From: an archaeon
Lineage (GTDB): Archaea > Nanobdellota > Nanobdellia > Woesearchaeales > UBA9642
Direction of reading: 5' to 3'
NCBI GenBank assembly: GCA_020057295.1
Contig: JAGVGF010000006.1
Span: forward strand, 179,752-243,751
Length of the DNA stretch: 64,000 nucleotides
The notes under the pieces were generated by a model that was given only the letters and a program-made list of their open reading frames with translations, was not told where the DNA came from and made no database searches. Position numbers and translations under genes: made by a program. Below are positions 1 to 46,051 of the stretch, piece by piece. Numbering within the stretch: position 1 is the stretch's first letter; each line of letters begins with the position of its first letter.

Positions 1-1746
1 TTCTGAACAAGTGTGTGATCCAGGATTTGTTCCGTCACAAGTCTCTGTTCCTTCAACAGCATTATTACCACAATAAGAACATGTTCCTCGAGTAATTGCA
101 CAAGTACTACTACAAGAAGGAGTTCCATGATTCATATCACGATCAACATTATTATACACGATACTATATTCAGAGCAAGTATGCGAACCAATATTTGTTT
201 TATCACATTCTTCAGTACCTTCAATAATATTATTCATACATAAAGAACAAGTTCCTTTCGTTAAAGCACAATTAGTACACGATGGAGTTCCATGATTCAA
301 ATTCCAGTAAGCATTGTTAAACAATGTAGTGAATTCATCACAACTATAACCACCAAGATTTGAACCATCACACTGCTCACTTCCTTCAACAATATTATTC
401 ATACACAAAGAACATGATCCTAAAGTTATTTGACAATTACCATTACATCCTGGAGTTCCATGATTCAAATTCCAGTCAGCATTGTTAAACAATGTAGTAA
501 AATAGTCACATGAATATCCTTCATCTAAATTAATCACTGAACCATCGCATTGTTCATAAACTCCATAAGCATTAGGCCATTGAAGAGAACCATCGCCGCA
601 TCGTGTACAGTCTGGATCAGATATCCCGTGACTTGCACATATTCCTGACGATATTCCGCAACTTGATCCATAATTATTCGGACATATTCCATCACTGGCT
701 CCGCAAGTATAAATATTATAATTTCCAGAAGAAACATCATATAATTTTACACCATAACCGTGTGTTCCAGAATAACATGTTCCAGAACATATTGGAGATA
801 TTGATCCTGAGCAAACATAAGATGTAGTCCAGCTACCACATTCATATACACATCCAGTTCCAGAGCCGTTCCATAATGCAAATTGTTCTAAAGAGTTTAA
901 AGGTTTTGCATCGAAAGATTCTCCATTAATAAATTCGCGATTATTCACCGAAATATCAGATAAAGTTATTTTTGGACAAATCCAGGAACTGCAATATTGT
1001 GAAGTCTGACAGACACCGGTACAATAATAATTATCTGGAGCATCGCAAGTCATTTCTGCATTTGTGTTACATGAACCTTCACAATAACAATTTCTATTAT
1101 TTAATTCTCCTCCTTGTTTACTATCACACATAGTTGTTGGTGAACTATATGTTACAGCGTAAACTTTATTATTGCCTGGAGTGTTATCACAAATGTAGTT
1201 GTAACATCCACCATTAGCTACGACATACATTCCGTCTTTGTAAGACACTGTACCATAAGAACTACATGCAATGTTTTGGCATTGACCATTTACACAATTC
1301 TGATTTGCTCCACACACATTTCCACACGATCCACAATTAGTAACAGTATTTATTGGAGTCTCACACCCATCAGATGCTATTTGATTACAATTTTTTTGTG
1401 TATTACGCGCACAAGGTTCGCATCCGCTAGAATCATCACAGTAAGAATTTATGCCACAATTTTGACTAAAATAACACGATACGCCACCAGTCCACCTAGC
1501 AGTGTTATATCCTGTACTCGTACAACCAAGAAAATCAATAGGATTACAACTAGGATAAGAAACGGGATTTTTAAACACACATGCTCCACCAGTCCATGTA
1601 CACAAACTATTCATTAAACATCCTGAATATGATTCGTGTGGACAAGGTGGACGCGCATAAACAATGTTTGATAATATTATTACTAAAAATATTAGTAGAA
1701 CAATGGTGATTCCTTTCCAAATATAACTTCGCCTACTCATCCTCAT
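1..1746 (-). CDS. Secreted Cys-rich repeat surface protein, 3' end outside the window (>580 aa, absent from ORF track)
   Basis: Hand translation is open from ATG 1746/1740 to position 1: MSRRSYIWKGITIVLLIFLVIILSNIVYA (signal peptide), an NCGSCGNVC motif, then 55-56 aa repeats C(M/G)NNxxEGxExCD...NHGTPxC. Confidence 0.9.
   Translation of the reverse strand, partial: MRMSRRSYIWKGITIVLLIFLVIILSNIVYARPPCPHESYSGCLMNSLCTWTGGACVFKNPVSYPSCNPIDFLGCTSTGYNTARWTGGVSCYFSQNCGINSYCDDSSGCEPCARNTQKNCNQIASDGCETPINTVTNCGSCGNVCGANQNCVNGQCQNIACSSYGTVSYKDGMYVVANGGCYNYICDNTPGNNKVYAVTYSSPTTMCDSKQGGELNNRNCYCEGSCNTNAEMTCDAPDNYYCTGVCQTSQYCSSWICPKITLSDISVNNREFINGESFDAKPLNSLEQFALWNGSGTGCVYECGSWTTSYVCSGSISPICSGTCYSGTHGYGVKLYDVSSGNYNIYTCGASDGICPNNYGSSCGISSGICASHGISDPDCTRCGDGSLQWPNAYGVYEQCDGSVINLDEGYSCDYFTTLFNNADWNLNHGTPGCNGNCQITLGSCSLCMNNIVEGSEQCDGSNLGGYSCDEFTTLFNNAYWNLNHGTPSCTNCALTKGTCSLCMNNIIEGTEECDKTNIGSHTCSEYSIVYNNVDRDMNHGTPSCSSTCAITRGTCSYCGNNAVEGTETCDGTNPGSHTCSE
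283..498. repeat. Intragenic 48-bp direct repeat (283-330 and 451-498, 1 mismatch)
   Basis: tggagttccatgattcaaattccagt(a/c)agcattgttaaacaatgtagt, offset 168 nt = one 56-aa repeat unit. Confidence 0.85.
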
Positions 1747-1890: not shown

Positions 1891-3690
1891 TTATTTTTTC
1901 AAAATCATCTTTATGGTTTTCATGTATGGTTTTTCTGTTCCTGTTGTCGGATTTGCAATCATTCTCAATAAATATACACCGCTACTTAATCCGTTTCCAT
2001 CTACTTGTTCTGTATACATTCCAGAATTTTGTATTCCTTTATCTACTTCTCTGACTAATTGTCCTAATGTGTTATATAATCCTAATGTTACATGAGCATT
2101 CTGCTTTAATGAATATCTAACATTTGTCGTCGGATTAAAAGGATTAGGAGAGTTTTGTGAAAGTTCGAACGATTTAGTATTATTTTTTAATATTAATTCT
2201 ATATTGTTTGAATATTTAAATTGTCCATCATTATCTATTTGTTTTAATCTATATTCTACTGTATCAGAAATATTTGTTTCTACAAATTCATATGTTCTTG
2301 ATACGGATGAACTTCCTGAACCTTGAACAAATCCTACTCTTTTCCAATCTTTAATTTTTCTATCAACATTTTTTTCTACATCAAAGCCATAATTATTTAC
2401 TTCTGTTGCAGTAGTCCATTTAAGACGAGCAATATTATCAATATATGATCCTATAAACGATACTAATTCTACTGGAAGAGGAGTTGAATTAGTAGTATTT
2501 GACCATTCACTAACTCCTGCTTCGTTTTTTGCTCTAACTCTTACAAAATATTTTGTATTTGGAGAAGCAGTAAAATTTTTATCTGTTCTTCTAAGTAAAG
2601 AATCATTTACTGAAAAAGTTGTGAATGATGAATCTGTGGATATTTGTAAATGATATGTTTCCGTACCAAATGAATTTGTCCATTTAACAAGCATTTCTAA
2701 AGGGACTCCTGTTGAATTATTAACTGGTTGTGTTATAGATACTGAAGATGGAATTGTTGGACTAACATAATCTTCTATATTTAATAAGAATGCGTTTTGT
2801 TCTCCTCTAACTTTTGCCTTATGATGTCTCTCAGCAGTTTTTGTTAATATATTATCATCTAATGTAAATTCTGGAGGATGTCCGTTCGGATCCATATTAC
2901 TTGAAAATGTTGTTACATAACTTTTATCATCTCCAAATCCTGCAACTTCGTGTTGTAAGATAGGAATTGTTGGACCAGGAGAAACATTTGCACTGATAAT
3001 ATTTATTAAACCATTTCCATCATCGAATATAGTAGTTTGATTGTTATATGGACTGTTAAAAGTTATTAGCACTCCACCATTATCTACTACATCCGCTGAA
3101 TCTGTTGTTAATATATATCTTTTTTCTTTCAATATAAATTCTATGCTTGATGTGTCGGAATCTTGCCATTGCGTTAATCCATTTCCTAATGCTTTTCTAA
3201 ATATTAACGAATCGTATGATGTTGCGTTGCTTAAGAATGTTTTTTTAGGGTAATCTGCAAATAGAGGGTCTTTATTTTTTGGAGCACTACTTGAATATAG
3301 ATCTATCATTTTCTCAGCTGTAATTATTCCTGTTCCTTTAGTTACAGTTTGTGTTGTTTCTGGAAGCGTAAAATTTAATGTCTTATTGCTTGTAATATTT
3401 ACTGCAGTTTCAAAAAAATCCATATATCCTTTTTTACTGATTCTTACATTATGTGTTCCTGATTGTATTCCTGCAATGGAGTAATTTCCGTTAACATCTG
3501 TTTCTGCAGTAATGGCACTTGAATCCACATATAATTTTACATTTTCTATTGGAACTCCTGTTGAATCTTTTAATGAAGTAATTTTTCCTTGTAAAGTGTA
3601 GTTTTGAGCTGAAGCTAATCCTGATACAAATAAAACAGGTAAAACTATTTTACGGAATAATCTACCTACAATATTATCGAGTTTTAGCAT
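1891..3690 (-). CDS. Secreted protein: carboxypeptidase-regulatory-like beta-sandwich, FN3-like domain and T9SS type A C-terminal sorting domain
   Basis: Signal peptide ending ASA-Q; GKITS...ETDVNGNYSI; FN3-like YFVRVRAKNEAGVSEWS; PLPVELVSF...YRLKQIDNDG module; C-terminal LSQNSPNPFNPTT...YNTLGQLV...LSSGVYLLR...KMILKK. Confidence 0.88.
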   Translation of the reverse strand: MLKLDNIVGRLFRKIVLPVLFVSGLASAQNYTLQGKITSLKDSTGVPIENVKLYVDSSAITAETDVNGNYSIAGIQSGTHNVRISKKGYMDFFETAVNITSNKTLNFTLPETTQTVTKGTGIITAEKMIDLYSSSAPKNKDPLFADYPKKTFLSNATSYDSLIFRKALGNGLTQWQDSDTSSIEFILKEKRYILTTDSADVVDNGGVLITFNSPYNNQTTIFDDGNGLINIISANVSPGPTIPILQHEVAGFGDDKSYVTTFSSNMDPNGHPPEFTLDDNILTKTAERHHKAKVRGEQNAFLLNIEDYVSPTIPSSVSITQPVNNSTGVPLEMLVKWTNSFGTETYHLQISTDSSFTTFSVNDSLLRRTDKNFTASPNTKYFVRVRAKNEAGVSEWSNTTNSTPLPVELVSFIGSYIDNIARLKWTTATEVNNYGFDVEKNVDRKIKDWKRVGFVQGSGSSSVSRTYEFVETNISDTVEYRLKQIDNDGQFKYSNNIELILKNNTKSFELSQNSPNPFNPTTNVRYSLKQNAHVTLGLYNTLGQLVREVDKGIQNSGMYTEQVDGNGLSSGVYLLRMIANPTTGTEKPYMKTIKMILKK

Positions 3691-3711: not shown

Positions 3712-3750
3712 TTTATAAAGTTTTTGGTTGTAGTCACTCAATAGTGACTA
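3712..3750 (-). promoter_or_regulatory. Archaeal TATA box (TTTATAAA 3712-3719) with upstream inverted repeat tagtcact-caat-agtgacta (3731-3750)
   Basis: TATA box lies 21 nt upstream of ATG 3690 (leaderless spacing) with A-rich BRE-like bases; the palindrome has perfect 8-bp arms. Confidence 0.55.
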
Positions 3751-3778: not shown

Positions 3779-6700
3779 CTAGTTTACAACAATATTTTTC
3801 TTTCCATAAATAAGATATTTTCCACTCGTACTATTAAACAAATTAGAAATTCCACAATAATAACCTATTTTATCAGTCACAACAATATCAGGGAATGTAC
3901 AATTAGTAATAATACTATTTACAATAAGATCATATTTCGGATCTTCAACAATGTTACCAGGAATTACAGCTGCAGTAGGATTTATTAAACAATTGCGTAC
4001 ACATTCATTAGATAAAGTAACTTTTTTCTTATCTAAACCACATTTTTTAGCACATTTTTTAACAGTATCAGCACTAGAACCATTAACTCTCTCATCACCA
4101 GTTATATTCACAAATAAAGGTAACTTAAATAACGCGTTAAGCAATTTAGAACAATTATTTCCTGTATTGAAATCCGTACCTACATCACAACTATTTAAAG
4201 CCGGAAAACAATATCCGTCTGTCAAACCATATCTGAATCCTTGAGGACAAAGAGTTTTATTAGCTGAACATATAACTGTATTTCCATCGTAATTAGTTAC
4301 AGCAGGATTATCCAAATTTAAACTTGCTACTAGACATGCAGCTTGACCACTAGAATTTTTATACACACAATTAGACGCGCCAGCGCATATCTTATGAACA
4401 GGAGGAACTGGTAATGCACATGATTGACCTAAAACAGTTAGTCCAAGTTTATCACGAACTTCTGCGCATGTCATCCACGTATGATGTGCAGAATCTATAG
4501 TGAAATTTACACCAGAGTTTGCAACAGGAATATTTTGTGTATGTGGATAGAATTTATCATCAACAGTATTCAAAGTTTTTGCCGCGTTTGTAAAGAATGC
4601 TGCTCCGCCAGGAGGAATTACACCCATTAATTTTCCTGCACATTTAGCAGGAATTGTACCATTTAAAGTATAATTAAATTCTATAGAAGTACTTCCTGCG
4701 CCAATACTTAAATCTCCCATTTCGCTACTATTTAATCCAATCACAGCTCCTTGACCGCCAATGTTACATGCACCATCAGTACTATTAATATCAACTTGTG
4801 CAAATCTTGCAGCAGAACAATCACCTGTAAAATTAATTACTACACGAACTTTATCTTTTGGAGCACACACTCCCCTATCACAACCAGTACCAGGATACAC
4901 TGCAACATTTGTAATAGAACATAATTGACAATATACACATCCAGGATTACTACTATCACAACTCTCACCATATTGAGGTTGAGTAATTCCATCACCACAT
5001 CGTGCAGCATCTTGAGTCCATTTCGGCCAATCTATAGTGCATGTATCAAGACATGGTGCATGACCAGGATAAGGCTGTCCAGCTTTTACGACATGAGTTA
5101 CACCGAGTGTATCGCATATTTCTCGACCATTATTATTATGATCTCCGTATATTTTATAATAATTAGTTCCGCCAGCATTAAGTCCTCGTTGAAAATCATT
5201 TTCGGTTAAATCATAAAATGTCCTATCAAGATTAGAAATATCATATGTTTGAGTTTCATCATTACACCAACTATCATATTTAAAATCACAATGTAACGTA
5301 GCCATAAAATAATTAGGATCAGTATCACTAAGAGGAACAACATAAAAATCAGGATAATCTGGAACCCACCATCTATTAGACCAAAATTTTGAATGGTTTA
5401 AATATCCCCAAAAGCCAGTAAACTGTCTCCATTCTATGTGTGCTTGATACCCGCTTTCACAATACGTTTCAGTGCCATCACAAAGAGTTCCATTTTGTGC
5501 AAGCCAAGGAAAAGGACCTCCATTAAGATTAGTAGCTCCTTCAGAAATAGTCTGTGCAATAGCATCTCCACATCTAGTCCTAAGAGTACAATTAGGCGAG
5601 CATCCACTACCATCTTGACCAATCATGTTGTCAGGATCATACTCGTCATAAGGATCATTTGCTCTTCTTGAGCATGTTACTGATGTTGTAATATTCTTAC
5701 TATTATTTGTTATCCATTGTAATCCATTCCATAATTTACATGATGCTACAGAACCTGAATGAGTCGCAGCAGCTTCATTTGAAGTTGCATAATTATTATC
5801 TATACAATATTTTACTCTGCTTGGTTTATCATCACATATAACAACGCGAGATCCGTCTGTTGCATTTGGAGAAGGATATGTTTTACTTCCACTAGTAGTA
5901 TTATAATCGCATTGTTCGCCTGCATCTAATTTTCCATCACCACATATTGGACCAATAATAGTTATATTTGAACATGTAGTATTACAATAGGAACAAACAG
6001 TATTAGGTGCAGCAACACATGCTGTGTTAGTATTAAATCCTCCTAAATCACATTGTTCTGTAATACTATTATGATTAGGAGTTTGTTTCATACCATCACC
6101 ACAGATTGACCAATGACATTTGTAACAATCAGCAGTATCAGTAGGACCAACATCACATTGTTCTCCATATATTGTATCTACAAAATAATTTCCACAAGAG
6201 CCATTAGTTAAAGTTATACCTTTAGTTAGTGTTGTAGAATAATAATTAGATTGTTTGTTTAAAGGAATTGGTAAACCACTATAAGCTTCTGAAGCGACTA
6301 GTGTTAAAGTTTGTCCATTACATCCAACGGGTATTGAAGGAATTTTATCGCTAAGTAAATTTGTAGGAGAAGTAAAACTACTAAGATTAGGATTGAAGAT
6401 TAATAATATCATTTTAGAAATAACATTAGTAGAATCTGGAGTGTTATAATTCATAACACAAGAACCGTATGCAGATGCGAAATCTATCTGTACACTTTTT
6501 GCTTTAGAACAATCTCCAGTATAATTTACAGTAATATTTAATTTATTATCAGAATTACATGCACTATTAACAATATCACATCCATTACCTGGTTTAATAT
6601 CTATACCAGTAATTTTGCAAGTTCCACACGCTCCATCGCCCATACAGAATGTATTTGCTGGACATTGTGCATCACTAGTACACGCAACACATTGCCGGAA

Positions 6701-9700
6701 TATGCATGTAGGCTTCAAAGAATTTTTAACTACACAATCAGTATTAGTATCACACTCTATATTATATAAGTATATAGGATTTATCTGTGTACCAGCATAA
6801 TACGCAAGAATGGTTGGAGGAAGAGTTGCTCCAATACCAAAATATTCCGTGTCTATTTTTTCAGAAACATCTTTAGAAGCTAGAACTTTTTTGGAAGGAT
6901 ATGAACCAAGTAAATCATCTTCAGTAATGTCTAATAATCTTTTTGATAAGTCATTAACAGGTAAAGATTTTACAACAACTCCACCATCATATCTAAATGA
7001 TATTCCTGTAATATTATTTATTACTTTATTACCACAAATCAAAGGAAGTGTTGGTACTGTATAAGTAAAAGACGTAGTAGTTATAAGAGGAGTATTTAAT
7101 AATGTATTAGATCCTGTCATGCCTTTCATCGAGCCACTACTAAATTGTATCTTACAAGAATTATCAGAACTTGCAGCATCCACTTGTATTGCTTCTGTTA
7201 ATGCACAATTGCCAGTATATCTAACATTAACAGTCCAAGTAGTACCAACATTACATGCATTAGCACTACTGCTACCACATGATGAAGGAGTAATTGATGC
7301 ACTTAATATTGTACAATCTTTAATTTGACAAGTATTAGTACATCCGACACTAGTATCTGGAATATTATTGGAGCAAGTAACAGGATATACATAAGCGGCA
7401 ATCAGAGTATTCCATCCCCCAACATATTTGATACATGGCGTTCCAAAAGTTATTGGTGTTGCGCCAACAGTTGCAGTATTAAATCCATTCTCCAAACAGA
7501 ATCTTGTCAATGAAGTAGTATCTCCACATACACCATAATAGTTAGCACCATTATTATTTGAACGTTGCATAGATGCAGTAGTACTAAACGTAACAGATGA
7601 TGGAGGTATATAATCACATTGCTCGCCAGAATCTGTAATAGTATTACCACATGTTGTACATCGTGAAACATCATATCCACTACAACCAGTATTACATCCT
7701 AATGTTCCTATCCATGTTCTACCATCATTCTTTACGCCCGTACAAGTCATAGAATTCAGCGTTGTACCATCACATGTTTCTGAAAATTCTTTAACATTAT
7801 TTCCACAATATCCACATTTACTATAATCAAAATTACAAGAATTAGTACATGAAACAACTCCATTATTGCAGTTCACAGCATTTCCGTTAGCATTAGAACA
7901 TGAATTGTATTGACTGCAAACTTTTCCATTAATATCAGAACCGTCACATATTTCAGCAGGTTCTCTTATACCATTACTACAATAACCACAACCAGCAGAA
8001 TTTAGTTTACATCCACCACAAATTAAATTTCCGTTGTTGGCCGGAACATCAGCACCATTTCCTTGTGGATCGCTATACACATTATAGTTTGCACAAGTTT
8101 TTCCATAAGCAGTTGAACCGTCACATTCATCTCCTCTATTTGGATCGATTATATTATCACCACAAATACTCGGAACCCATGAACATCCTAAAGTAGTACA
8201 TTTAGCTCCACGATACGCGCTACAATCAATTGTACCATCACAATAATTTGGATTAATAGCAGGTTCAACAGTGTAGCAATTGAGAGGTGCATCTGCACTA
8301 CAATCATATCCGGACCATGAAAGAGAAGGTATTTCAAATTCGCCACAACTTCTAGTTGATGGACCTTTACATATATATTCTAATTTACAAGAACTACATC
8401 CATCACCGACAACAGAATTTCCATCATCACATTCTTCTCCATCTAAAACGTTAACTACACCATCACCACAAACATTTGGTTGCCAACCACAACCAGCAGC
8501 AGTACAAGCAGAATTAGACTGCAAAGAAGAATCTTTACACTCAATTATACCGCCACAACTATGATAACATTCACTCCAAAACTGATCAGCATAGCAACCA
8601 GCAGGAGCAGTATCACATTCAGTCTCACAATTATCAACAAAATAACCATTACAACTTTGAGTTGATGAACCTTTACAAACGTACGTCTTTAAACAACTAC
8701 TTGAACATCCATCGTAATTGTTTAGATTACCATCATCACACTGTTCTCCAGCAGCAACATTCATCACACTATCACCACAAACATTTGGTTGCCAAGTACA
8801 ACCAGCAGCAGTACAAGCAGAATTAGACTGCAAAGAAGAATCCTTACAATTAATTGTGCCACCACAAATATTTGGATCATTGCCTGATTCAACAGTAGAG
8901 CAATCAGTAGGAGCATTTGCACCACAATCATAACCAGACCATGAAAGAGAAGGTATTGCAAAAATATCACAACTTCCAGTTGATGAACCTTTACAGACAT
9001 AATCTAATGCTATACGACAAGTTCCTTGTACAAAAGCTGAACAGTCAGTTCTACATCCAGGAGTGCCTATATATTCTGCACCATAAATATTAGCACAAGT
9101 GGAACCACTAGTACCATCACAAATTTCAAAACCATTTCGTATATTATCACCACAATGTTGTGTAGTAGTACATGCATTTAAAGTACAAGAAGCAGAACAA
9201 CTTTTAGAACCGATGTATCCATTAGTAATACAAATAGTTCCACTACCATCACATTGCTCATTACCATTTCTTACGTTATCACCACAAGATTCAGAAGGAA
9301 CACAAGTTCCTGACCAAGAACAAGATCCAGTACATGATTCAGTTCCCGCATAACCTGCTGCAGTAGTACATGCTCGAGTATTGCCATCGCATTGCTCAGG
9401 ACCAATCGTTATTGAATCTCCGCAATAATATGGAGTAACACAATTATTCCAGCTACACCAAAGGTCGCAAGATTTAGAGCCAGGATAACCGTTAACAAAA
9501 CATGTTTCAGTATTACTATCACATTGTTCATTACCATTTCTTACGTTATCTCCACAAGATTCATAAGAATAACATTGATCATACCCGTTACACAAACCAC
9601 CACATCGTTGAGTTCCAGAATAACCTGCTACGGTTGAACAAGATACAGTATCACCATCACATAATTCACGACCATTCCTCCAGCCGTCACCGCACATTTC

Positions 9701-10060
9701 TGTAGAATAACAATTAGAATAGCCTGTGCACAAGAAACAACTTTGAGTGCCAGTATAGCCGTTAAAATCTGTACAAGATTGAGAACCGCCATCGCAAGTT
9801 TCATAACCATTCTTTTTACCATCACCACAAGATTCACAAAATCCACAACCAGCCCACCGACAACTAGAACAATAATTTAGGCCATTATATCCCCCACCAC
9901 AGGAACAAGAATTAGGCCAATTTTGATCACACTGCTCTCCAGGATCCAAAATAGTATCACCACAATATGCGGAAACATTAGAAGAAATAATAATTAATAG
10001 AAAAGTGCTTAATATAAAAAATATTGTTAGTGAAAATAACGTTTTATTCTTCATCATCAT
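3779..10060 (-). CDS. Large secreted Cys-rich protein with Myxococcus-type cysteine-rich (DUF4215-like) repeats, 2093 aa
   Basis: N-terminal signal peptide; many CGDxxxxxxExCD(D)G repeats including CGDGVVNVLDGEECDDGNSVVGDGCSSC; three related beta-rich modules in the C-terminal half. Confidence 0.9.
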   Translation of the reverse strand: MMMKNKTLFSLTIFFILSTFLLIIISSNVSAYCGDTILDPGEQCDQNWPNSCSCGGGYNGLNYCSSCRWAGCGFCESCGDGKKNGYETCDGGSQSCTDFNGYTGTQSCFLCTGYSNCYSTEMCGDGWRNGRELCDGDTVSCSTVAGYSGTQRCGGLCNGYDQCYSYESCGDNVRNGNEQCDSNTETCFVNGYPGSKSCDLWCSWNNCVTPYYCGDSITIGPEQCDGNTRACTTAAGYAGTESCTGSCSWSGTCVPSESCGDNVRNGNEQCDGSGTICITNGYIGSKSCSASCTLNACTTTQHCGDNIRNGFEICDGTSGSTCANIYGAEYIGTPGCRTDCSAFVQGTCRIALDYVCKGSSTGSCDIFAIPSLSWSGYDCGANAPTDCSTVESGNDPNICGGTINCKDSSLQSNSACTAAGCTWQPNVCGDSVMNVAAGEQCDDGNLNNYDGCSSSCLKTYVCKGSSTQSCNGYFVDNCETECDTAPAGCYADQFWSECYHSCGGIIECKDSSLQSNSACTAAGCGWQPNVCGDGVVNVLDGEECDDGNSVVGDGCSSCKLEYICKGPSTRSCGEFEIPSLSWSGYDCSADAPLNCYTVEPAINPNYCDGTIDCSAYRGAKCTTLGCSWVPSICGDNIIDPNRGDECDGSTAYGKTCANYNVYSDPQGNGADVPANNGNLICGGCKLNSAGCGYCSNGIREPAEICDGSDINGKVCSQYNSCSNANGNAVNCNNGVVSCTNSCNFDYSKCGYCGNNVKEFSETCDGTTLNSMTCTGVKNDGRTWIGTLGCNTGCSGYDVSRCTTCGNTITDSGEQCDYIPPSSVTFSTTASMQRSNNNGANYYGVCGDTTSLTRFCLENGFNTATVGATPITFGTPCIKYVGGWNTLIAAYVYPVTCSNNIPDTSVGCTNTCQIKDCTILSASITPSSCGSSSANACNVGTTWTVNVRYTGNCALTEAIQVDAASSDNSCKIQFSSGSMKGMTGSNTLLNTPLITTTSFTYTVPTLPLICGNKVINNITGISFRYDGGVVVKSLPVNDLSKRLLDITEDDLLGSYPSKKVLASKDVSEKIDTEYFGIGATLPPTILAYYAGTQINPIYLYNIECDTNTDCVVKNSLKPTCIFRQCVACTSDAQCPANTFCMGDGACGTCKITGIDIKPGNGCDIVNSACNSDNKLNITVNYTGDCSKAKSVQIDFASAYGSCVMNYNTPDSTNVISKMILLIFNPNLSSFTSPTNLLSDKIPSIPVGCNGQTLTLVASEAYSGLPIPLNKQSNYYSTTLTKGITLTNGSCGNYFVDTIYGEQCDVGPTDTADCYKCHWSICGDGMKQTPNHNSITEQCDLGGFNTNTACVAAPNTVCSYCNTTCSNITIIGPICGDGKLDAGEQCDYNTTSGSKTYPSPNATDGSRVVICDDKPSRVKYCIDNNYATSNEAAATHSGSVASCKLWNGLQWITNNSKNITTSVTCSRRANDPYDEYDPDNMIGQDGSGCSPNCTLRTRCGDAIAQTISEGATNLNGGPFPWLAQNGTLCDGTETYCESGYQAHIEWRQFTGFWGYLNHSKFWSNRWWVPDYPDFYVVPLSDTDPNYFMATLHCDFKYDSWCNDETQTYDISNLDRTFYDLTENDFQRGLNAGGTNYYKIYGDHNNNGREICDTLGVTHVVKAGQPYPGHAPCLDTCTIDWPKWTQDAARCGDGITQPQYGESCDSSNPGCVYCQLCSITNVAVYPGTGCDRGVCAPKDKVRVVINFTGDCSAARFAQVDINSTDGACNIGGQGAVIGLNSSEMGDLSIGAGSTSIEFNYTLNGTIPAKCAGKLMGVIPPGGAAFFTNAAKTLNTVDDKFYPHTQNIPVANSGVNFTIDSAHHTWMTCAEVRDKLGLTVLGQSCALPVPPVHKICAGASNCVYKNSSGQAACLVASLNLDNPAVTNYDGNTVICSANKTLCPQGFRYGLTDGYCFPALNSCDVGTDFNTGNNCSKLLNALFKLPLFVNITGDERVNGSSADTVKKCAKKCGLDKKKVTLSNECVRNCLINPTAAVIPGNIVEDPKYDLIVNSIITNCTFPDIVVTDKIGYYCGISNLFNSTSGKYLIYGKKNIVVN
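8462..8848. repeat. Intragenic 78-bp direct repeat (8462-8539 and 8771-8848, 3 mismatches)
   Basis: Encodes CKDSSLQSNSACTAAGCxWQPNVCGD twice, offset 309 nt. Confidence 0.9.
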
Positions 10061-10718
10061 TACTCTTGACGACTTTTGATTTTGTCGTAGAAGATTTTTT
10101 CTCAGATTTAAATTTTTGTGTAATAGAATTTAATTCATTTACATTATCAATGAATGTTGGTAAAACTTTTCCAAATACTTTTTCCATTGCTTGCAATTGT
10201 GCACCGACGTCAATCATATGTTTATCATAATCTCCAATCTTTCCAATAATTGCATTGTGTAATTTATCGAATTGTGCTTGTAAGTCTGTCATCTGTTGTT
10301 CCATTGATGCTAACTTATTATCTGCTTTTTGTTTCCATTCAATTACTTTATTTATGTCTTTTACAAGTTCATTCCATTTCTCGTCTATGATTGCTTCTAC
10401 TAATTCTTCGGGCGATCCTTGTAATGAACTCATTGAAACCCCTTGTGAAGGCATAGATTGTATTGGTGGTAATTGATTACCAAGTTGTTGCATTTGTGGA
10501 CTTAATTGAGAATTTGATTGTTCGCCTGCTGCTTGTGGTGAACCCATTTCTGATTGTGATATTGCATCAAATATCTGGCTAGAAGTATAACCATCTCTTT
10601 GTAATGTTTGTATAATCTGATTATTAGTGTAGCCTTGCTGCTTCATTGCAGAAACTTGTCCAATCGGAATATCTGGACCAGCAGCGAGGTCAGATTTGTT
10701 AGACTTAAATATACCCAT
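10044..10718 (-). CDS. Hypothetical cytoplasmic coiled-coil protein
   Basis: 224-aa ORF with SD-like gagggtg upstream; helical N-domain, Q/P/S linker, heptad-rich C-half; overlaps the start of the downstream gene. Confidence 0.8.
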   Translation of the reverse strand: MGIFKSNKSDLAAGPDIPIGQVSAMKQQGYTNNQIIQTLQRDGYTSSQIFDAISQSEMGSPQAAGEQSNSQLSPQMQQLGNQLPPIQSMPSQGVSMSSLQGSPEELVEAIIDEKWNELVKDINKVIEWKQKADNKLASMEQQMTDLQAQFDKLHNAIIGKIGDYDKHMIDVGAQLQAMEKVFGKVLPTFIDNVNELNSITQKFKSEKKSSTTKSKVVKSNDDEE

Positions 10719-17484: not shown

Positions 17485-20400
17485 ATGAACTTAAGGGTTT
17501 TAAAGTATTTTATAGTATTTATCCTCTTACTAAGCACGTTTATACTGGTTAATTCTTCTAATGTTAATGCTACATGTAATGTTTGGTTTAATGGTTGTTA
17601 TAAGGATGCTAATGCATGTACTGTTGGTAGTGCTTCTTATAATCAATACAAATGTAGACCATTTGTTGATGTTGATGCACCAATATGTACACTCGGTAAT
17701 GATCCTAAATGTATGCCTGGATGTTGTTGTCCTACATCTGCTTCTGCTGAACTTACTCTATCTGGATTATGTAATGTTACTAGAGGAACATTTAATTCTG
17801 GTAGTTATACATTAACTCAATGTCAAAATTTTTGTTCTAGTGTGGTTGCTGGTAGCAAATATAATATTACAGGAACAGTTACAATAGTTGGTACAGGTCT
17901 TGTTTCTGGTGCACATATAACTCTTAATCCTAGTGCTAAAAATAATAATACTATTTCTGGTGGTACTTATTCTTTGTACAATGTTGATCCTGGAACGTAC
18001 ACTGTTACTGCAGAATATAGTGGATGTAATAATAATACTCAAGTAGTAATTGTTAACTCTAATGTTGTTTCAGATATCACGATTAAGTGTGATTATTATA
18101 GTGTTAGTGGTAATGTGAATTATACTTCTGGCGGAATCTCTGGTGCAGAAGTTAAATCTAGTGTAGGAAATATTATTAGTGGAACAAATGGAGCGTATAC
18201 TCTTAGTAATATTTTAAAAAATACTGCATTTGATATTACAGCTAATAAAACAATTGGCGTTAATTGTTTCGGAACAATACATATTAATCCCGTACAAAGT
18301 AATCTTGTCGGACAAAATATTACTTTAGTATGTAATACTTATACTTTTAATGGAACAATTAAGAAACGTGATAATTCTCCATTAAGCGATGCAACAGTAA
18401 GTAGTAGAGGAGGACTTACAACAGGCAATGCTGCAGGATTTTATAATTTTAATTCTGTAACTCCTGGAAGTATTACCGTAACTGCTGTAAAAAATGGAAT
18501 CGCTGTTAGTGGTGGTATAATGAGTTGTAGTGGAGAGTTATCTTTTAGTTTAGATAATAATTATATCAACAAAGATTTTATTGTAACTTGTTGTACTGAT
18601 AAAACTTATAAGAGTCCATGTATAGATGGTCAGATAGAAACTACTGTAGAAACAACATGTGATGATGGTAGACCTTTAACCAATACAAAGAGTTATGCAC
18701 CATGTAGCGTTCCTACTGCTTGTGAATGGAATTTAACATGGACTGGATGTGCTGCTAATGCTGAAACTGAAAGTGCTGTTCCTGGTACTCCTGCAAAAAT
18801 TATTGCTAATGGTTGTGATCCTAATATAATAACGCCACAGCCAGAATTAGTACGTGCATGTCCAACACAATGTGGTGATGGAAATTTAAATGTTTCTAGA
18901 ATATTAAATGGTTTTGTAGTTCCTGAAACTTGTGATTATAATTATAAAAGTGGAATATATAATGTAAGTGATAGTTGTTTCGCTGCATGGCAAGCTGCCG
19001 ATATTAGTAATCCTAAAAAAATAAATTTTAAGAGCGATTTAACAACAGATGCTACATGTTACATTGGAAACTGCACATGTAAAACACCTCCTCCAAAAAT
19101 AATTCCTACATGTGTTGACAATCCTGGTAATCTTAGTGACTTAAACATTTCTCATATTGCAATGCAGCACGCATTTAATGTCAGCTGGAATATAACTAAT
19201 CAAAGCTGTGCAAATTATGTTTCAAACTTTAGTTTAAGAATTTGTAATAATGCCACCGGTGCATGCATGGATGTACTAAATAATTATGTTCCAGTAAATA
19301 ACAGTATTAGTAATAATAGTAGAGCATATTTACATAATGCTTCTGACAATAAACCAATACCTATAGTTGAACTTACTGAATATTGTTATGAATTAACAGT
19401 TACGTTTAATGATAGTATTGTTGATCCTGCAAAACGTAAAAGCAGTATGATTAAGTGTATTAAGGCTGGTGATGAAAAATGTATGAGCATACATACCGAT
19501 AGTTGGTGTACAAGCAATAAGAAAACTAGTTGTTATGCAAATAATACAATTAATATTGTTCCTACTATCTGCTCAGCTACAGAATTTTGTACAAACGTTA
19601 ACGGAAATGCAGAATGTGTATATCAGCCAGAGTGCAATTTATGTAATGGTATCTTCGGAATATTAAGTTATAGTGAATTGAGAATACCTAGTCTAAGGTC
19701 AGATGCTAATTTAGGAAAACTAATATGGTGTCCTTCATTAGTTCATCCAAATCCTAATCCTTCGCAAGATTGGTTTGATTCAAGTAATCTTTATGGTTGT
19801 TACTTAGATTATTCTATGTCTACAACTGTTGATCAATCGTATGATTGTGATAAAGTACTTTCTTGTTATAATTATTTATCTAAAGATTCTTGTGAAAATG
19901 ATTATTGTAACAAATTTAATCAGACAGGAGCTAATGGTTGTGGATGGCAACCATACAACGGGGATAAATCACTTACTCCTAACATTTTTGGTAAAGGTGT
20001 ATGTAGACCTAAGAACGAATCCGAACAACAGTGCGGATTATGTAATGATAATAATCCTTTAAAAGTTAACAGAATATTTAGTAATTGTACTAAAGACATT
20101 TGTGGATTATATGGTAACTGTTTCTTTAACACTAACGGAAACAATTGTATGAATGCAAGAGATGTTACTTGTCCAACATATACACTTCAAGACGATTGTA
20201 TAGGAACGAGCAGGAAAAATGTAAGTACGGTTGTTGATTGGAATCTTGTAGATGGTTTGTTAAGAAAAGTTAGCGGAACTAATGTAAGGATTAATAGTTC
20301 TGATGCTGTTGGCTTGGGCGTATGTTATTGGGATGGTTCATGTAAACGTAATACAGATAATAAAACAGACATAGTTGATTGTAAACCAATAGCATTAGGA

Positions 20401-23400
20401 GGAAAACTTACTATATGTACTAAAGATTATATTGCTCCAGTAACTAAAATTACTAATCGTACAGCTTACGGATTATTAATGGACTTGAATGGCGAGATAG
20501 AAATACAAGATAATAATGCATGGCCGATAGGAGATTCAAGCATAGACACTTCATATATTAATATCGGACCATCAAAGACAACATGGATGTATTACTGCGT
20601 GTCAGCATATGGTGTAGGTCCATGTTATCCTGATAATACTATGAATTTTACTGATTCTCAACAAAAGTATAAGGTTAATTTAACTAACTTCGGTCTAAGC
20701 AATGCAAATAATAGTCAATTGTTTACGATGTATTATTTCTCTGAGGATCCTGCAAAGAATCTTGAATTAATAAAGAGTTTCACATTTAAGTTAGATACTG
20801 AAGGACCAAACGTTAATGTAAACATAGGACTTGATCCTTACAAATTAAGCAGAAATCAATGGTTAACAAATATTACTGTAGATTTACAAGTTGTTAACAA
20901 CGAATTATCTCCTCCTGTAGAATGTAAATTTACAATGCATCCCCCAGAGACTATTGATAGAGTAATATCATTCAATGGTAAGGAACAGTATAATATTCCT
21001 CGAAGAGATAATCCTTCAGATGTAAAAATATATAACATAGCTACTGACAGATTACATACAGCATATCCTGAATTAGTTAATGGCGCATATACTTGGGAGT
21101 TGGATTGTTTTGATGCAGCTAAAAATCCTACACATAAAACAGGCAGCATTCAAATTGATGGAGATCTAAGAATTAATAACCCTATTCCAAAAACTAAAAC
21201 ATTTACAACAAGAAGTCTAGCTACTGGCACAGTACACACGTATCCTGTTAATATTAGTGTTAATACTACTGGTCCTGGATTGTGTAAATACAATGATACC
21301 ACACCATCATTACCTTTCAATAGTGCTTCAATGATTTCAATGATTAATGGATCATTTAATGATACATTAAAAACACAACAACACAATGCAACTATAAATA
21401 TTCCATTAAATGAACCTTATATTAATGGGACAGGATTATATTATTATTACATTGCATGTAATGTAAGTATTAATAGCGAGTATAATGTTATTACTGGTGA
21501 TGATTCTGATAATCCTGCATTTGCAATTGATGATGCAGCACCCGAGACTAAATTAATGGATGCTGGAAGAATTCCAATAAAAGAGTATAATAGCAGTATT
21601 CCAGCAAAAGATGGTTCAGTAGAAGATGTATTGAGGTTAATATTATCCTGTGATGATAATAATACATTATTGAGAACGTTATCGAATGCTAGCATGGCGT
21701 TTGGTTGTAATAATACAGCAAGATACTACTGTATATATAATAGTTCAAATGATTGTACAAATACTGCAACATACACACAATTTACTAGTGATATAGTGTT
21801 GAACTATAATATACGTGATGGTCCAGATAAAAAAATGTATGGTAATAATCCTAGAATATTCTTCTACAGTAAAGATCTTGGCGGTAATGTTGAAGATATA
21901 AAGTATGTTCAATTAAAGCTTAAAAATAATGTTTTAGAGAATCCTAATGTTACATTATACAATCCTTATGATATTAGTAAAGATATTATGAATATTACTG
22001 CTAGAGGAATAGATATTAATCAAGCATTAATTGCTATAAAAGTTAATTATAGTGATGAAACTAATGTTAGTATAGCATCATTGTCTAAATATTATGAAGT
22101 TCATAAAATAGATAGCGATAATGCATATGTTCCATTAAGAGAAGATACTCCGCTTAATAATACTGGAGAATTCCTATTCTTTAGACAATATTGGCCTAAT
22201 GGAAAATATAATTTAACTATTAATGCTACTGATGAAGATGGCAATAATAATATTAATACTACAATATTCTATGTTGAAGCGCCAGAAAACTTTGTACAAT
22301 TACAATCACCGGTATTAGGCATAGGAACTACAAGATTCTACAACATTAATGTGTCAACATTATATGATAGTACATGCAAATATAGTACAAGTGTATATCC
22401 AGCATATATTAATCTTTCAGACTGGTATATACAGTTAGATTATAAATTATTTAATATAACTAATGTTTCTGAGAATTTATATCATAATATTGCCAATTAT
22501 GATGGTGATGCTAGCGGAACGTTATATGTAATATGTAAAACTATTGATAGTTTAGATGAAAGTAATAAATCGTATGTTATGACATCGTTCCCCGTAGGAT
22601 ATTTAACCACAAATCCTGTTGTTAAGAATATTACATTCATCGGCCAACCAACATTCGATCCATTTAATAGTACGATAATCAATGCATCATACAATGCAAC
22701 AATAATTAAAGTTATTACAGACCAAGATACCGTATGTAGAATTAATGGTACTAGCACAATATTAAACGTCTATAATATGATGTTAAATGGTTCTGGAGTT
22801 TTAGAAAATATTTCAGATTATAATAGTTACAGTACAACACACACATTATTGATAAATTACAGTGGAAGACTAGGATCCACAATCAGCGGAGTATTCAATT
22901 ATACTATTAATTGTACCAACCATGCACAGAGAACAATCGCAAATGATACAAAGATATATCTAGATTTGAATTATCCTGCACCATCATTAACATACAGCGT
23001 AAATAATTCATATATAACTCGTAAGAGCATTAATGTAACATTCAACGATCCTTACATTACAAATTATACTTATAGTATTATCACAAATATTGCAGATCCT
23101 TGTACATATCTTACTTCCAAAGCATTTGGAACAATACTAGATGTTAAAGAAACATCAAAAGTATGTGTCAAAGGAGTAGATGTTTTAGGAAGAGCAGATA
23201 CTAAAACAATTCCTATAACTATTAGAAACTTTGATAGCGGAAATGTTACTGTTATTAGTCCAAGATATTTAAAAGATAAATACATACTTGGTCAAACAGC
23301 AACATTTGATTTAGTTATTGATACTGATGTAAATGCTACATGTAAATATACTAAGGCTGCAGACTTCCTTGAGGGCGGAACTAATCCTTTAGATACACTA

Positions 23401-26400
23401 TCATTTGACTACATATATAATGATGCTAGAGCTAAGTTAATGAATACTACGAATTCTACAAGTAATATAACAGGATACAACATAGGATTTGGCGAGAATG
23501 TTTTTGAGGATTTAATAATTATATGTAAAGCAGCAAATGTCGATCCTACATCATCGCCTAACATTAGCAGAGCATTCAGTGTTGCGTGGGATAATACATC
23601 TTCAAGTATCAACATTAATGCGCCACAATTAATTGATGATATGAATAATAGAATTGCGGTATTCGATATTACTACTGATGATAATACTATGTGTTATTTC
23701 AACGGAACATTATTCAACGGAGATAAAGACAATATATTATATAATGATTCAACAAAATATGTAAGTTACAAACAAACTCATAGACACACCACATATTATA
23801 CTAATCCAGAACATTATGTTGGTAATGATATATTATATACATATAATATTACATGTATTAATACTGCGGGATTATCAGGCAAGAACAACACTAATATAAG
23901 ATTCAAGCCAGCTATTAATATATCAGTCACACGTAATAGTCCAACACTATATCTGACAAATACTAGCTTACTCGTTTCTGCAAATACATCTATACAAGCT
24001 AATTGTTCATTGTATGTCAACAACACATTCAGTAGATGGATGGCTCCTACATCAAATAATAAGACACATAATATTTTAATAGATTTGAAAGATAATGAAT
24101 ATAATCTTAATGTATCATGTTTCGTTAATAGTAATATCAGTATAAGAGGAAGTACGAATTATACAGTTATTGTCGATACTAGACCTAGCAGAGTAGAATT
24201 ATCTGCTAATTCTATAATGTGTAATTTATCATTCTTTAATGCTAGTTTGAATATTATTAGCGCATACGGCATTAAAAATTATACATACGTTGTGTATAAC
24301 GGTTTGAATAACGAGATTAACAGAACTAAAATAACTTCAAGTATGGGTCGAACATATAATACATTATTAAATTATACAACACCTACAAATGTTAATGGTG
24401 AAGCTTACAGTTTAGAAGTTTCTGCAATATTTAATGACGGCAGCACGGATAGTAAGACTGTTAGTGTAACAACATATGATCCTGCTACTGATTCTCATTG
24501 TGATTATGTTAATCCCGGATTGACTATTACTAATAAAACAATAAATGCCAATATGGCAGAAGTAAACATTAGCTGTACTGACGCTAACAGTGGATGTAAA
24601 GGATATAGTTATGATATCATACCTGTTGGATGGGATTGCGCTACACGTGCAGTATATGGAAGTTTACAAACATTCACAAATAATAATGCATCAATAATAT
24701 TAACAAACGGACAAACAGGAAGATTATGTGTAAAAGTCTATGATAATAGTGTAAATAATAATTATAATACTACTGATGTTACAATAAATACCAGAGTAGC
24801 AATATGTAGTAACGGAGAATTAGACAGGATAGACCCAGCAATAATAGCAAACTACAATCTAGCAATAGGATCAACAAATGATTACAACGAAGTATGTGAT
24901 GGAAGTAATCTAAGAATAAACAGTTGTATTAATGTGCCACATAGTCCAGCATATACTGCAGGAACATTAACATGTAACCTCGGAATATGTAGCACATATA
25001 ACGAATCACAATGCAGACAAGGAATGCCAATAACACTAACAACACCACTATACTTCGGAATAGCAAATAAAAGCATATACAATCTAACGATAACAACACC
25101 ATCAAACAGCACATGCAGACTAGTAACAACACAACTACCAGATCCACTACCAGAAGGAGTAACAATAATAGACATATACAACGAGGCAGCTGACAAAAAT
25201 TTAACAAACAGAACGAATTACAAAGAAAATTATATAACAATAAATGCAACAGAACTAAACGATACATCACTATTCAACGAATATGCTAGAATAATATGTA
25301 ATAACACAGAACCAAACGCGAATGAAACAGGACAAGCATACAATGAGATACCATTAACGTTAGGATACTACGCTAATGGACCAACATTAAATATTACAGG
25401 ACCATCTATAATAAGAGATTTCAATTCTAGAATAATTACGCTAACTGTAGATACTAATCATCCTAGTATCTGTTATATTGAAGGACCATTAACTGGAGGA
25501 GCATATGCTAAGGCAAATATACCACCAGGTAAAGCATTAAACAAATATTATGATTATGATTATACAAGATTAAGAACATTAAATTATATGGCTGTTGTTA
25601 ATCCATTAGATTATGATAAATTCAGATATAATATTAGTTGTACTGACAGAGCAAATCTAACCACAGTTAAAGAATACAACATAACATATAACATTAGTCA
25701 AGATATTAATATTACATTTAATATGGCTAATTATTCATTAAATTCTAATGTAGAAATTGCTGTTAATACAAGCGTCATAGCTAATTGTACTATATTCATA
25801 GATGGATTTAATAACGGAACTTTCGGAGCTAACGGATTAATTCATTCTAAATATTTCACATTAGGAAGCAAAAATAATCATGAGATAGGAGTACAATGTA
25901 ATATTCCTAATACCGTAATATATTCTGAAATTAAATACCATAATATTACTGTTGATTTACAAAATCCTACAGTTAATATAAGTACTATTAACACAACAAC
26001 TTGTAATCTTGAATCATTCGATGTAAAAGTCAATGGCTCTGATGATACTACGCTTATATCATATAATTATACTGTTACGAGCACAGGAATAAGTTATACT
26101 AGCGGCAGCATAAATATTCCAGATACTATAACGTTCAATAATGAAGGTAACGGATTAACTGATGGTCAAGTATACAATATTGATGTATATACCATAGATC
26201 AATTTGGTAAGAACAGCGATCATAAACAATTAGCGATAACTGCACACAGTCCAAATAATAGCATCACATGTGATAGTAGAGAACCTACTATAACTATTGG
26301 TACTGCAACAATTATCAACAACACATTTGCTACTGTAGAAATTAATTGTACAGATTCAAAGGATGTAGCTAACGGAATATCTGCTAGTGGATGTCAATCA

Positions 26401-29400
26401 AAATATAAATATGCAACAGTTCCAAAAGGAGATTGTTCTGGACTAACAGAATCAGATTACAAAGAAGCAGAATTCTCCAACACTGATGAATATTCTAGTA
26501 CGCGTAAGTTAATATTATATGGAGATGTTGCAAAATTATGTGTACGTGGAATGGATAGAAGCGGAAAATATGCATATGCTAATAAAACCATATCGTTAAA
26601 TGCAATTGGATGTGGTGATGGAATAATACAGATAAAACCAACATTATCTGATTTAGGTTATGTATCAAGTTATGATAATTGGAATCAAGCATATTACGAT
26701 AGTATAACATACGAATATTGTGATACAAATGGAGCCACAGGAGCAACAAATTTAAGCGGCCAATCCTGCCAGAGTCTCGGTGAAGGAGTTGGTGGAACAT
26801 TATCATGCCCACATACTGGTGCTAACAAATGTAATTTCGATACTAGTAATTGTGTCAAGGGAATTAATGTTATATTAATTTCTCCATTACCGTTTGGATT
26901 AGGTCAATATAATAATTATAATTTGAGTGTTGGTACAAATAATTACACTTCAGTATGTAAAATAGGTGAATTAACATATCCTGGAGATACAATTGGTTCT
27001 TTCAATTATAATACTATGAATGTAATGAATCAGAGTGTAGTAAATAGTAGTATTAACAATTATACAATAACTATGAATGGTGGAGAGTATTATTATGCGC
27101 ATAAATATATCATATGTAACGCATCAATTTCAGGATATACTGGACCTGTTCTAGGAACATTCGGAATATTAGATGTATACACGGGTTATGAAGGAACATT
27201 ACCAAACATTTCATTAGGATTAGATAGAACTAAATTATTTGATTGGAATGATAGGACAGCATATGTCTACATAAATACTACTGACACTAATGGAATTGAT
27301 GAAAATACTGTTTGTTATATCAATGATAGTGGAATACTATATAATACATATTTAATACCAAACGGAAATGTAACAGATTATAGTACATATAGTTCTAAAA
27401 AAGCAGTGTATGTTGATTTCGGATCTAGATATACTAATCCAGCATATAAAATGTTTACATATAATGTTACATGTATTAATCGTGCACAGAAAAATACTAG
27501 TAAAACAATCAATTTAGAATATAATATTGTTGATTATATCAATATAAATAAGACTTTCCCATCAAGCCAATACATTGGCAGTGCAACTACAGATCTTGAT
27601 ATAAAAACAAACATATTAGCTAGATGTACTGTCAATGATGGAACATTAAAATCAATGGACAGCACATTAAGCACTACACACACTACTAATGTTAACATAG
27701 GAAACGGATGGAAGAATGTTACAGTAATATGTACATCACCATTTGCTAGCAGTAGAACTTTAATTAATACTACAGAATTTAGATTTAGAGGAAGTACTGT
27801 TGGTCCTAATGATGTAGCAATCAATGTAACATATAATTCATGTAGTTTGAATGATGTAAATATAACATTTAATTCTACAGATGTTACTGGAACAGGAATT
27901 GATAATTATAACTACAGTATTTCATCAGGAGTCAAAGATTGGACTATTGTAAATACGGTTGGTGGAAATACACACATAAACATTAAACCATCAGTCTCGT
28001 TAGTTTCAGGATCAGAATATACTGTACAAGCAACTGCTGTTGATAAAGCTGGATTTGTATCATCAGTAACATCAACAACATTTAGAGCATTAAATAACAC
28101 TGTATGGCAATGTGATAATACTAATCCTTCAATGACAATAACATTACAACCTGTAACATCAATATATAGAAAAGATGTTGAAATTAAATGTACTGATAAT
28201 TACTGTACTACTAGTTTCGATTATGCATTGATTGACCAATCAGGAAGTTGTAATAGTGCAACATATATAACTAAATCTTATGATACAATAAATACAGATT
28301 ATAGTACTGGAAAATTAACTATTGATAATACTAGTAAAGTTTGTGTCAAAGGAAGAGACTTAAAAGGAAATCTTGGAACATACGAGTTGGTAGTTACTGT
28401 TACTGATAGAACAAGCGGAATTATTAGAATAATTTATCCAACATTCTTAGAAGGACAATATATAACATCAAATACTAGCGTTACAAACGTAGTGATAGAC
28501 ACTGGTGTAACTGCTAACTGTAGATTAACAGAAGCAACAGGAACACTACCAGCATCAAACAATGCAGTATATGCAGGATCTAAAGATTTCAACGTTACAG
28601 GAAGCACATTAAAAATACATAATATAACTAATTTCACATTCACTAACGCAAACACTCTATACGATTGGCTATTCATATGTAATAGAACTGATGTGCTTAA
28701 TGCTCCAGAAAGTGAAGCATATATTATGGATGTATACAGTTTAATGTATGATGCAACAAAACCAACAATAGATAGCGTTTCAAGTACAAGTGTAACAGAC
28801 AGATGGGATAAAAATACAGAATTAACAATAATAACTAATGAACCTACAATATGTTATAGAGATGGAGTAATAATAAATAATCTAAATACAAGCAAATATA
28901 ATGACTATAATACCAAGCACATTGAAAAGATATCTTACATATCGTTAGGAGAAACATCACAAACATTCAATTATAATATAATATGTATGAATAGAGCTAA
29001 ATTAAACAGCACAAGTTCTGGAATATCAGTGTTATACGATTTAAACGATACACTAGGATTAGTAAAGACTGCGCCAGCAAGCAGTTCAGATGATATATAC
29101 TTAGCAAGTAATAGTGTAGAATTACAAGTTAGAACTAATTTATTAGCAGTATGCACTGCAAACAATGGTAGTGTAACAAACGTTATGGAATTACAACAAC
29201 CATCAACAGATCAATACTATTACTATAATATACAATTATCAAGTCTATCAAATATTACCAATGTAAATGTAACATGTGTACGAAGTGGAAGTATAGATGA
29301 ATCACACAAATATATATTACATTCTAACGTTGTTGGTCCACAACAACCAACTGTAAGTGTATCACCAAACGTGTGTAGTTTAACTAATGTAGCACTAACA

Positions 29401-46044: not shown

Positions 46045-46051
46045 TTCAAAA

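Follow-up and report, generated by a model that had tools for sequence, protein, structure and literature searches.

The C-terminal tail of the T9SS, or type IX secretion system, is commonly taken as a hallmark of the diderm bacteria of the Fibrobacteres–Chlorobi–Bacteroidetes (FCB) group, and as a predictor of T9SS cargo, the substrates of the system being recognized from the periplasm. In the Archaea, the PGF-CTERM signals are short, tripartite, and transmembrane. The C-terminal sorting of archaeal proteins through PGF-CTERM and the archaeosortase ArtA is named in 10.1101/2023.06.07.544157, archaea are not treated in a T9SS review (PMC10202324), and a table row in PMC6461988 annotates a Por-tail peptidase in archaea of MBG-D (Marine Benthic Group D). 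A search of a full-text library returned no paper joining the DPANN archaea or the Woesearchaeota with type IX secretion. The present analysis concerns a gene for a protein with such a tail in a 64,000-nucleotide stretch of DNA (the window) from the genome of an archaeon of the Woesearchaeota, a DPANN lineage. The gene (the target) occupies positions 1891..3690 of the minus strand and comprises 599 codons plus the stop, as delimited by the list of open reading frames (ORFs), the Pfam and NCBIfam matches, and an AlphaFold2 model. It appears to be a whole cargo gene that was transferred between the Ignavibacteria and the archaeon, with a product that is exported by the Sec pathway and a tail that has been kept as a folded, immunoglobulin (Ig)-like module, a reading that is held here with moderate confidence.

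The tail and the gene that carries it

Both of the curated models identify the last part of the protein (approximately aa 506-599; 1894..2175, minus strand, as for all the parts of the gene given below) as a genuine T9SS type A C-terminal domain (CTD). The Pfam model PF18962 (Por_Secre_tail) matches aa 515-586 with 30.6 bits against a cut-off of 27, and the NCBIfam model TIGR04183 matches aa 515-585 with 28.7 bits against a cut-off of 23, reaching 34 bits in a six-frame search of the genome, while the structural model places a beta-sandwich at aa 509-597. The domain lies at the extreme C-terminus, ending at the stop codon, with the sequence QNSPNPFNP...SSGVYLLRM...KTIKMILKK at aa 512-599, and is preceded by a further beta-sandwich (approximately aa 405-505; 2176..2478) that contains the module PLPVELVSF...YRLKQID at aa 403-486. 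The conserved motifs B, D, and E of these tails are an early PNPF, a GxY within the penultimate strands, and a last strand of basic character, all of which are present in the target when it is aligned with the bacterial tails. The names of these motifs are those of the review PMC10202324.

A search with the last ~200 aa recovered hundreds of matching proteins, at ~45% identity and E values of ~1e-40, with E <= 0.001 in 1025 proteins (8000 candidates). Organism names are attached to 8 of the 119 non-self entries among the matches listed, and all eight are Ignavibacteria or “Bacteroidetes bacterium”. Over its last 195 aa, the target aligns throughout with the ends of named Ignavibacteria cargo proteins, at 43-45% identity, as in the C-terminal alignments with P0032, from Ignavibacterium sp. 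(90/199 identical, E 1e-49), and P0106, from Melioribacteraceae (85/196 identical, E 6e-50). Among solved chains, the tail found no significant sequence match, PorU (6za2) appearing only within a multi-domain Foldseek alignment.

The AlphaFold2 model, which was built with 13 family members as input and has a mean predicted local distance difference test (pLDDT) score of 80.7, divides the protein into six parts. The signal peptide (aa 1-28; 3607..3690), as judged by inspection, has a basic n-region and reads MLKLDNIVGRLFRK, followed by a 14-residue hydrophobic core and ASA|Q, and the model shows an N-terminal helix here (aa 2-22) with a pLDDT below 50. This is followed by a transthyretin-like/CarboxypepD_reg domain (approximately aa 29-114; 3349..3606), which is recognized by Pfam at aa 41-109 with 42.4 bits against a cut-off of 32.3, an alpha/beta middle domain of no known family (approximately aa 115-306; 2773..3348; pLDDT ~90) with the motifs QHExxGFG, SNMN, and RGEQ, and an Fn3-like domain (approximately aa 307-404; 2479..2772) of the YHLQISTDSSF... 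repeat type. The module with the PVEL motif forms a second Fn3-like sandwich (aa 405-502 in the model), which leads into the tail. A model of the passenger only is less confident (pLDDT 67). Taken together, these features of a Sec substrate suggest that the target is exported by Sec as an extracellular or surface protein.

The middle domain had no Pfam match even at an E value of 10 in any of ten family members, a sequence search of solved structures gave no match beyond the N-terminal domain of the protein, and a search of the protein atlas with the middle domain gave no usable match. Fold searches were dominated by the beta-sandwich domains. Identification of the middle domain as a zincin-like metallopeptidase was considered and dropped, given that it does not combine the zinc-binding motif HExxH with a zincin fold, and that there was only one borderline match.

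The gene is native to the archaeon, with a leaderless promoter of its own, AT-rich codons, a tandem paralog, and a place in a variable surface-protein locus. Its TATA box (TTTATAAA; 3712..3719, minus strand) starts at -29 from the ATG, as in a leaderless-type archaeal promoter, and the same octamer is found at -29 in the tandem paralog, 6 kb away. This genome has 905 ORFs with a length of 150 aa or more, and a TATA-like motif starts at -30 or -29 in 129 of them, and at any other position in 12 or fewer, a sharp peak that is the signature of leaderless archaeal transcripts. A Shine-Dalgarno-like tetramer was found at -16..-4 in 283 of the same ORFs. The GC content of the gene, 0.30, is close to the mean of the ORFs of the genome (0.314) and below that of the Ignavibacteria homolog loci (0.37-0.48), while its GC content at third codon positions (GC3), 0.133, is ~2 standard deviations (sd) more AT-rich than the genome mean of 0.203 (sd 0.034).

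The genome itself amounts to 1.20 Mb in 6 contigs, with a completeness of 100%, a contamination of 0.46%, and a GC content of 0.31 on each contig. The gene lies between archaeal markers on a contig of 243,751 bp, the nearer end being ~62 kb away. Other products encoded in the window include SecY, an insertase of the EMC3/DUF106 type, and an OB-fold protein of the RPA type that binds single-stranded DNA. The best organism-named relatives of the SecY are from Candidatus Woesearchaeota, at 72-87% identity, with a single exception, P0149, which is 84% identical to the Woesearchaeal SecY and is labeled “Alphaproteobacteria bacterium”, probably as the result of a mislabeled or misbinned record.

The genome contains five tail-bearing ORFs on four contigs (124-268 kb), each with a signal peptide ending in AQ. 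No match to SprA, GldK, GldM, or PorV was found in this genome, and of PorU only the tail portion of the model was matched, on four of the five tail-bearing ORFs, the catalytic part being absent. Given that the standard control genomes scarcely matched these families, the searches for SprA, PorU, and PorV were repeated on Ignavibacteria and on archaeal relatives, with three Ignavibacteria genomes as positive controls for these three families, GldK and GldM lying outside the controls. The three genomes (G412, G514, and G610), which are also those that carry the passenger family of the target, gave 797-1021 bits for SprA, 513-996 for PorU, and 240-262 for PorV, in addition to dozens of further hits on the PorU model's tail portion. 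Among the archaeal relatives, G016 (6 contigs) had no SprA or PorV and only a tail-portion match to PorU, and G034, a closed single contig, had no SprA or PorU and a 35-residue match to PorV (25.9 bits). The archaeon appears, then, to be without a T9SS translocon, sortase, or shuttle, so that the tail could not serve as a T9SS address there; of the features of T9SS cargo, the signal peptide and the C-terminal tail are present, and the translocon and processing parts are not encoded in the genome.

An earlier note, made from the letters of the window, had read the two quoted motifs as a T9SS type A CTD on an archaeal ORF, to be recognized by TIGR04183, had described an archaeal TATA box at leaderless spacing in an archaeal host, and had expected sprA, porK (GldK), and porM (GldM) to be absent. 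All of this is borne out, the genome-wide count of tail genes standing at five, and PorV being unmatched too. The AT content, which it had called host-like, is roughly so for the gene as a whole, the third codon positions being richer in AT than those of the host.

Comparison with the tandem paralog indicates that the tail is probably under purifying selection, and is not a fresh conversion tract. The two tails are identical at 76/96 aa and 236/288 nt, while the passengers are only ~30% identical, and the Nei-Gojobori estimates, which are based on 96 codons only, are 0.57 for dS and 0.134 for dN, with a dN/dS of ~0.24. The tail is also found in 12 of the 18 other genomes of the same archaeal family, in 4 of the 22 other families of the order, and, across the phylum, in 32 of the 301 genomes with a completeness of 90% or more, from 20 of 225 genera, including the closed single-contig genomes G034 and G323.

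In 10 of the 12 ORFs from the examined loci that contain the strict motif, this motif is within 80-89 residues of the end of the protein. In the other two, the tail is internal, at aa 104-184 of 585 in a member of the same family (L011, G016:C2) and at aa 78-157 of 579 in one of the same order (L012, G032:C2), with ~400 residues following in each case. An internal tail means that there is no C-terminal address tag in these two proteins, and is a better fit to a reused fold. Both have the T9SS-type domain near the N-terminus, where it is preceded by a signal peptide and a stretch resembling CarboxypepD_reg. In L011, the C-terminal part contains another CarboxypepD_reg domain, along with an SNMN motif like that in the middle domain of the target. 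On one contig of a relative (G242:C35), three tail matches with identical scores at a spacing of 3009 bases, in ORFs of 866, 866, and 798 aa, suggest that tail-bearing genes of nearly identical sequence are arrayed in tandem.

The passenger family and its transfer

The passenger (query aa 1-410) was compared with 1.84 billion representatives, and most of the 7981 matches are owed to the Fn3-like repeat, while the whole passenger is covered by ten further proteins, at 34-40% identity. Por_Secre_tail is present on 10 of the 12 members that were scanned (these ten proteins together with P0002 and P0004), and the other two look truncated. One member, L045, is found among bacterial genes on an Ignavibacteriales contig from a metagenome-assembled genome (MAG; BTUV01000034.1, GC 0.44), with PALP, HIT, B12-binding, and AMP-binding enzyme genes as neighbors, and a second T9SS cargo gene adjoining it. 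In a profile search, in which up to 12 candidates per genome were scored, 3 of 201 Ignavibacteria genomes proved to have the family, and it is present in 2 of the 19 genomes of the archaeal family, that is, the genome of the window and G007. In 200 other genomes of the archaeal order, only seven matched, all of them partially, with single domains at 24-31 bits, and a metagenome scan yielded three short contigs only. One metagenomic member, L047, which is nearly identical to P0365, has a TATA-like box at approximately -28/-29, and looks archaeal.

The passenger family appears, on these matches, to be common to the Ignavibacteria and the Woesearchaeota. Given that the whole architecture belongs to a small cargo family that is shared with T9SS-bearing Ignavibacteria, the gene would have passed from one domain of life to the other in one piece. 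The direction of this transfer was probably from bacteria to archaea, because all the building blocks are typical of FCB cargo, and it is only there that the tail has a known role. The earlier note had proposed acquisition from an FCB-group partner, of which the FCB relationship stands, through the organism-named entries among the matches listed and the three T9SS-bearing Ignavibacteria genomes, while a physical partner is unsupported.

In a maximum-likelihood tree of 18 members, the well-supported groups are small clades, which unite the target with P0002 and P0326, the paralog with G007, and the bacterial sequences with one metagenomic sequence apiece. Repeated independent transfer was also considered; the backbone of the tree is without resolution, and one archaeal clade is not rejected by the approximately unbiased (AU) test (p 0.166). 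The prevalence of the family was dropped as an argument for the direction of the transfer, given that the family is rare in both lineages, and GC content does not separate the archaeal from the Ignavibacteria contigs.

The n-region of the signal peptide follows the pattern M-x-K-L-[ED]-x-I-V, ahead of the hydrophobic core, in members that are archaeal or look so (the target, the paralog, L043, L047, L057, P0284, P0331, and P0365), and this pattern is absent from the three Ignavibacteria members. One Ignavibacteria member on a contig of ~1 Mb or more (L053, G514:C3:995300-996142) has one in-frame TAG, and could represent either a pseudogene or a sequencing error.

The surface-protein locus

The target is flanked by two giant secreted proteins that are rich in cysteine. 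Its upstream neighbor (3779..10060, minus strand) has 2093 aa, with 8.5% Cys and no Pfam family at E <= 1e-5, and its downstream neighbor has 1287 aa, with 7.6% Cys, only the 5' part being included in the window (1..1746, minus strand), beyond the start of which the gene continues. The latter lies at C3:177634-181497 in the coordinates of the genome, and the tail-bearing paralog, of 700 aa, at C3:175469-177571, so that the order on the one strand is orf224, the 2093-aa giant, the target, the 1287-aa giant, and the paralog. The first of these, orf224 (10044-10718, minus strand), encodes a Q/M-rich protein of 224 aa of no Pfam family, adjoins SecY, overlaps the start of the 2093-aa giant by 17 bases, and is conserved across three species of the genus (L055, L056, and L057), with identities of 67-72%.

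In G009, which is of the same genus and has a SecY that is 83% identical, the flanks of this locus are syntenic (AspRS, three small membrane genes, orf224/237, and SecY), and between them are two Cys-rich giants and a different tail-bearing protein, which has 1037 aa and is encoded on the opposite strand. The conservation of the flanks, together with the difference in content, identifies a surface-protein locus that varies while its place in the chromosome is fixed. In all four of the loci of the genome, moreover, the five tail genes adjoin large secreted proteins and are co-directional with them. The tail proteins of 241 and 242 aa, for example (C4:170910-177568 and C5:13771-18401), are encoded directly downstream of, and co-directionally with, large secreted proteins of 919, 621, and 1297 aa, with gaps of a few bases. 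Elsewhere in the window, 17485-34398 (plus strand) is a single ORF of 5637 aa, uninterrupted by any stop and the largest in the window, which is followed by ~15 co-directional ORFs that have no Pfam match at E <= 1e-5.

The role of the tail in the archaeon

In the reading preferred here, the protein would stay outside the cell following its export by Sec, and the tail would form a stable Ig-like end module, which may either stabilize the protein or dock it non-covalently to a partner at the surface. As the tail genes adjoin co-directional genes for large secreted proteins in the four loci, the neighboring giant Cys-rich proteins, or other large secreted proteins, are candidates for this partner, and given that the target has a promoter of its own, its co-transcription with the genes of the giants is not implied. 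A number of points weigh against this reading. The docking role and the partner are conjectured, and the separate promoter of the target also counts here; the estimate of selection comes from 96 codons; and all the recognizable motifs of the tail, including the K-rich C-terminal strand, are intact, which would also be expected if some machinery reads the tail. The counts in the two lineages do not settle the direction of the transfer, the backbone of the tree has no resolution, and the AU test does not reject a single archaeal clade.

The tail might, for instance, still be a working signal for sorting or anchoring, through which an archaeal system that is functionally like PorU/PorV or an archaeosortase cleaves the protein or attaches it to surface glycans or the S-layer. 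The purifying selection on the tail and its near identity in paralogs that are otherwise diverged would favor such a system, as would its recurrence across the phylum, the signal peptides of all five proteins of the genome, and its C-terminal position in all five of these ORFs and in 5 of the 7 from relatives. This is unlikely, however, given the absence from the genome of homologs of the PorU catalytic part, PorV, SprA, GldK, and GldM, and the ~400 residues that follow the domain in two of the relatives, and no candidate machinery was identified, a systematic co-occurrence screen not being part of the analysis. A tail with no role at all, carried along neutrally with the transferred gene, would account for a profile score that is barely above the cut-off, and for the degenerate look of the tail found in G009 at the same locus. 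It is rather more difficult to reconcile with a dN/dS of ~0.24 at a dS of 0.57 in paralogs in which the passengers have diverged to ~30% identity, or with the retention of the tail on unrelated passengers, in five genes here and in 11% of the phylum genomes sampled, and is considered quite improbable.

A bacterial host had also been suggested by the earlier note, in which the tail would serve for mimicry, or for engaging the T9SS of the partner. An archaeon that lives or preys on T9SS-bearing FCB bacteria could bind or use the T9SS of its host through a tail that mimics the cargo, and the gene family is indeed common to Ignavibacteria with SprA, PorU, and PorV. Some Woesearchaeota have been proposed, on genomic grounds, to attack bacteria, in passages of PMC9723730 and PMC12352652. 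The window encodes a protein of 1338 aa (46034-50050, plus strand) with an N-acetylmuramoyl-L-alanine amidase domain (PF01510, 84.8 bits), a peptidoglycan amidase in an archaeon that should be without peptidoglycan. Amidase_2 is present in 49 of the 301 good genomes of the phylum, that is, in 9 of the 32 with the tail and 40 of the 269 others, a weak association that is confounded by relatedness, since four of the nine genomes with both are from the genus of the window and three from one other family; it was not retained as a line of evidence, and the hint of a bacterial host is correspondingly weak. Further, a protein that arrives from the outside would meet the wrong face of a system that reads its cargo from the periplasmic side, the internal tails of the two relatives are ill-suited to a secretion tag, the tail proteins are found in ordinary archaeal surface-protein loci, and a physical association with FCB bacteria is unsupported, as is the mimicry of a bacterial protein or the engagement of the T9SS of a partner. 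The use of the tail on a host is thus highly doubtful. An even less probable variant has the tail-tagged proteins delivered into the periplasm of an FCB host, whose T9SS would then export and anchor them, as archaeal effectors that hijack a secretion address; this is compatible with the shared cargo family, the intact and selected motifs, and the amidase in the window, and is argued against by the internal tails and, once more, the unsupported association with bacteria. Finally, the closest named relatives of the protein are bacterial, and some of the matches in relatives are on short contigs from MAGs (G012 and G013) in which the contamination is 4-6%, as might be expected if a bacterial gene had been combined with archaeal DNA by an error of assembly or binning. 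The position of the gene deep inside its contig between archaeal markers, the -29 TATA signature of the genome itself, a GC content below that of the Ignavibacteria loci, the five copies on four contigs, the synteny with G009, and the presence of the tail in closed single-contig archaeal genomes leave this artefact extremely improbable, and close to refuted.

The preferred reading, that of a transferred cargo gene with a retained module, would place an Ignavibacteria-type cargo gene as a native component of a DPANN archaeon of the single-membrane type that appears to be without a T9SS, in which the tail has probably been selected, has spread over unrelated surface proteins, and, in relatives, has moved inside the protein. 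The identification of “T9SS substrates” by profile is, accordingly, unsafe outside the bacteria. These archaea provide a natural experiment on the role of the folded tail apart from secretion, and the documentation of gene flow between the Ignavibacteria and the Woesearchaeota could guide the search for the partners of these archaea.

Among the known systems, the tail would resemble the CTDs of Porphyromonas gingivalis (RgpB, PorZ, and Hbp35; described in PMC10202324) in the C-terminal Ig-like sandwich of ~80-90 residues that is predicted here, although it has no significant sequence match to the solved chains. As in the PGF-CTERM signals of the archaeosortase ArtA, it is a C-terminal element on secreted archaeal surface proteins, although it is a folded beta-sandwich with no C-terminal hydrophobic helix. 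The closest likeness is to the type A cargo of the Ignavibacteria and Bacteroidota (P0032 and L045, for example), which has the same tail family, above the cut-offs. The target shares the Fn3-like pre-tail module with P0032, at 45% identity over 199 aa, and with L045 it shares the layout of signal peptide, CarboxypepD_reg, middle domain, Fn3, and tail, at 36% identity over aa 2-295 of the passenger. In contrast with this cargo, the target is encoded by an archaeal host in which SprA, PorV, PorU, GldK, and GldM were not found, and has a leaderless archaeal promoter.

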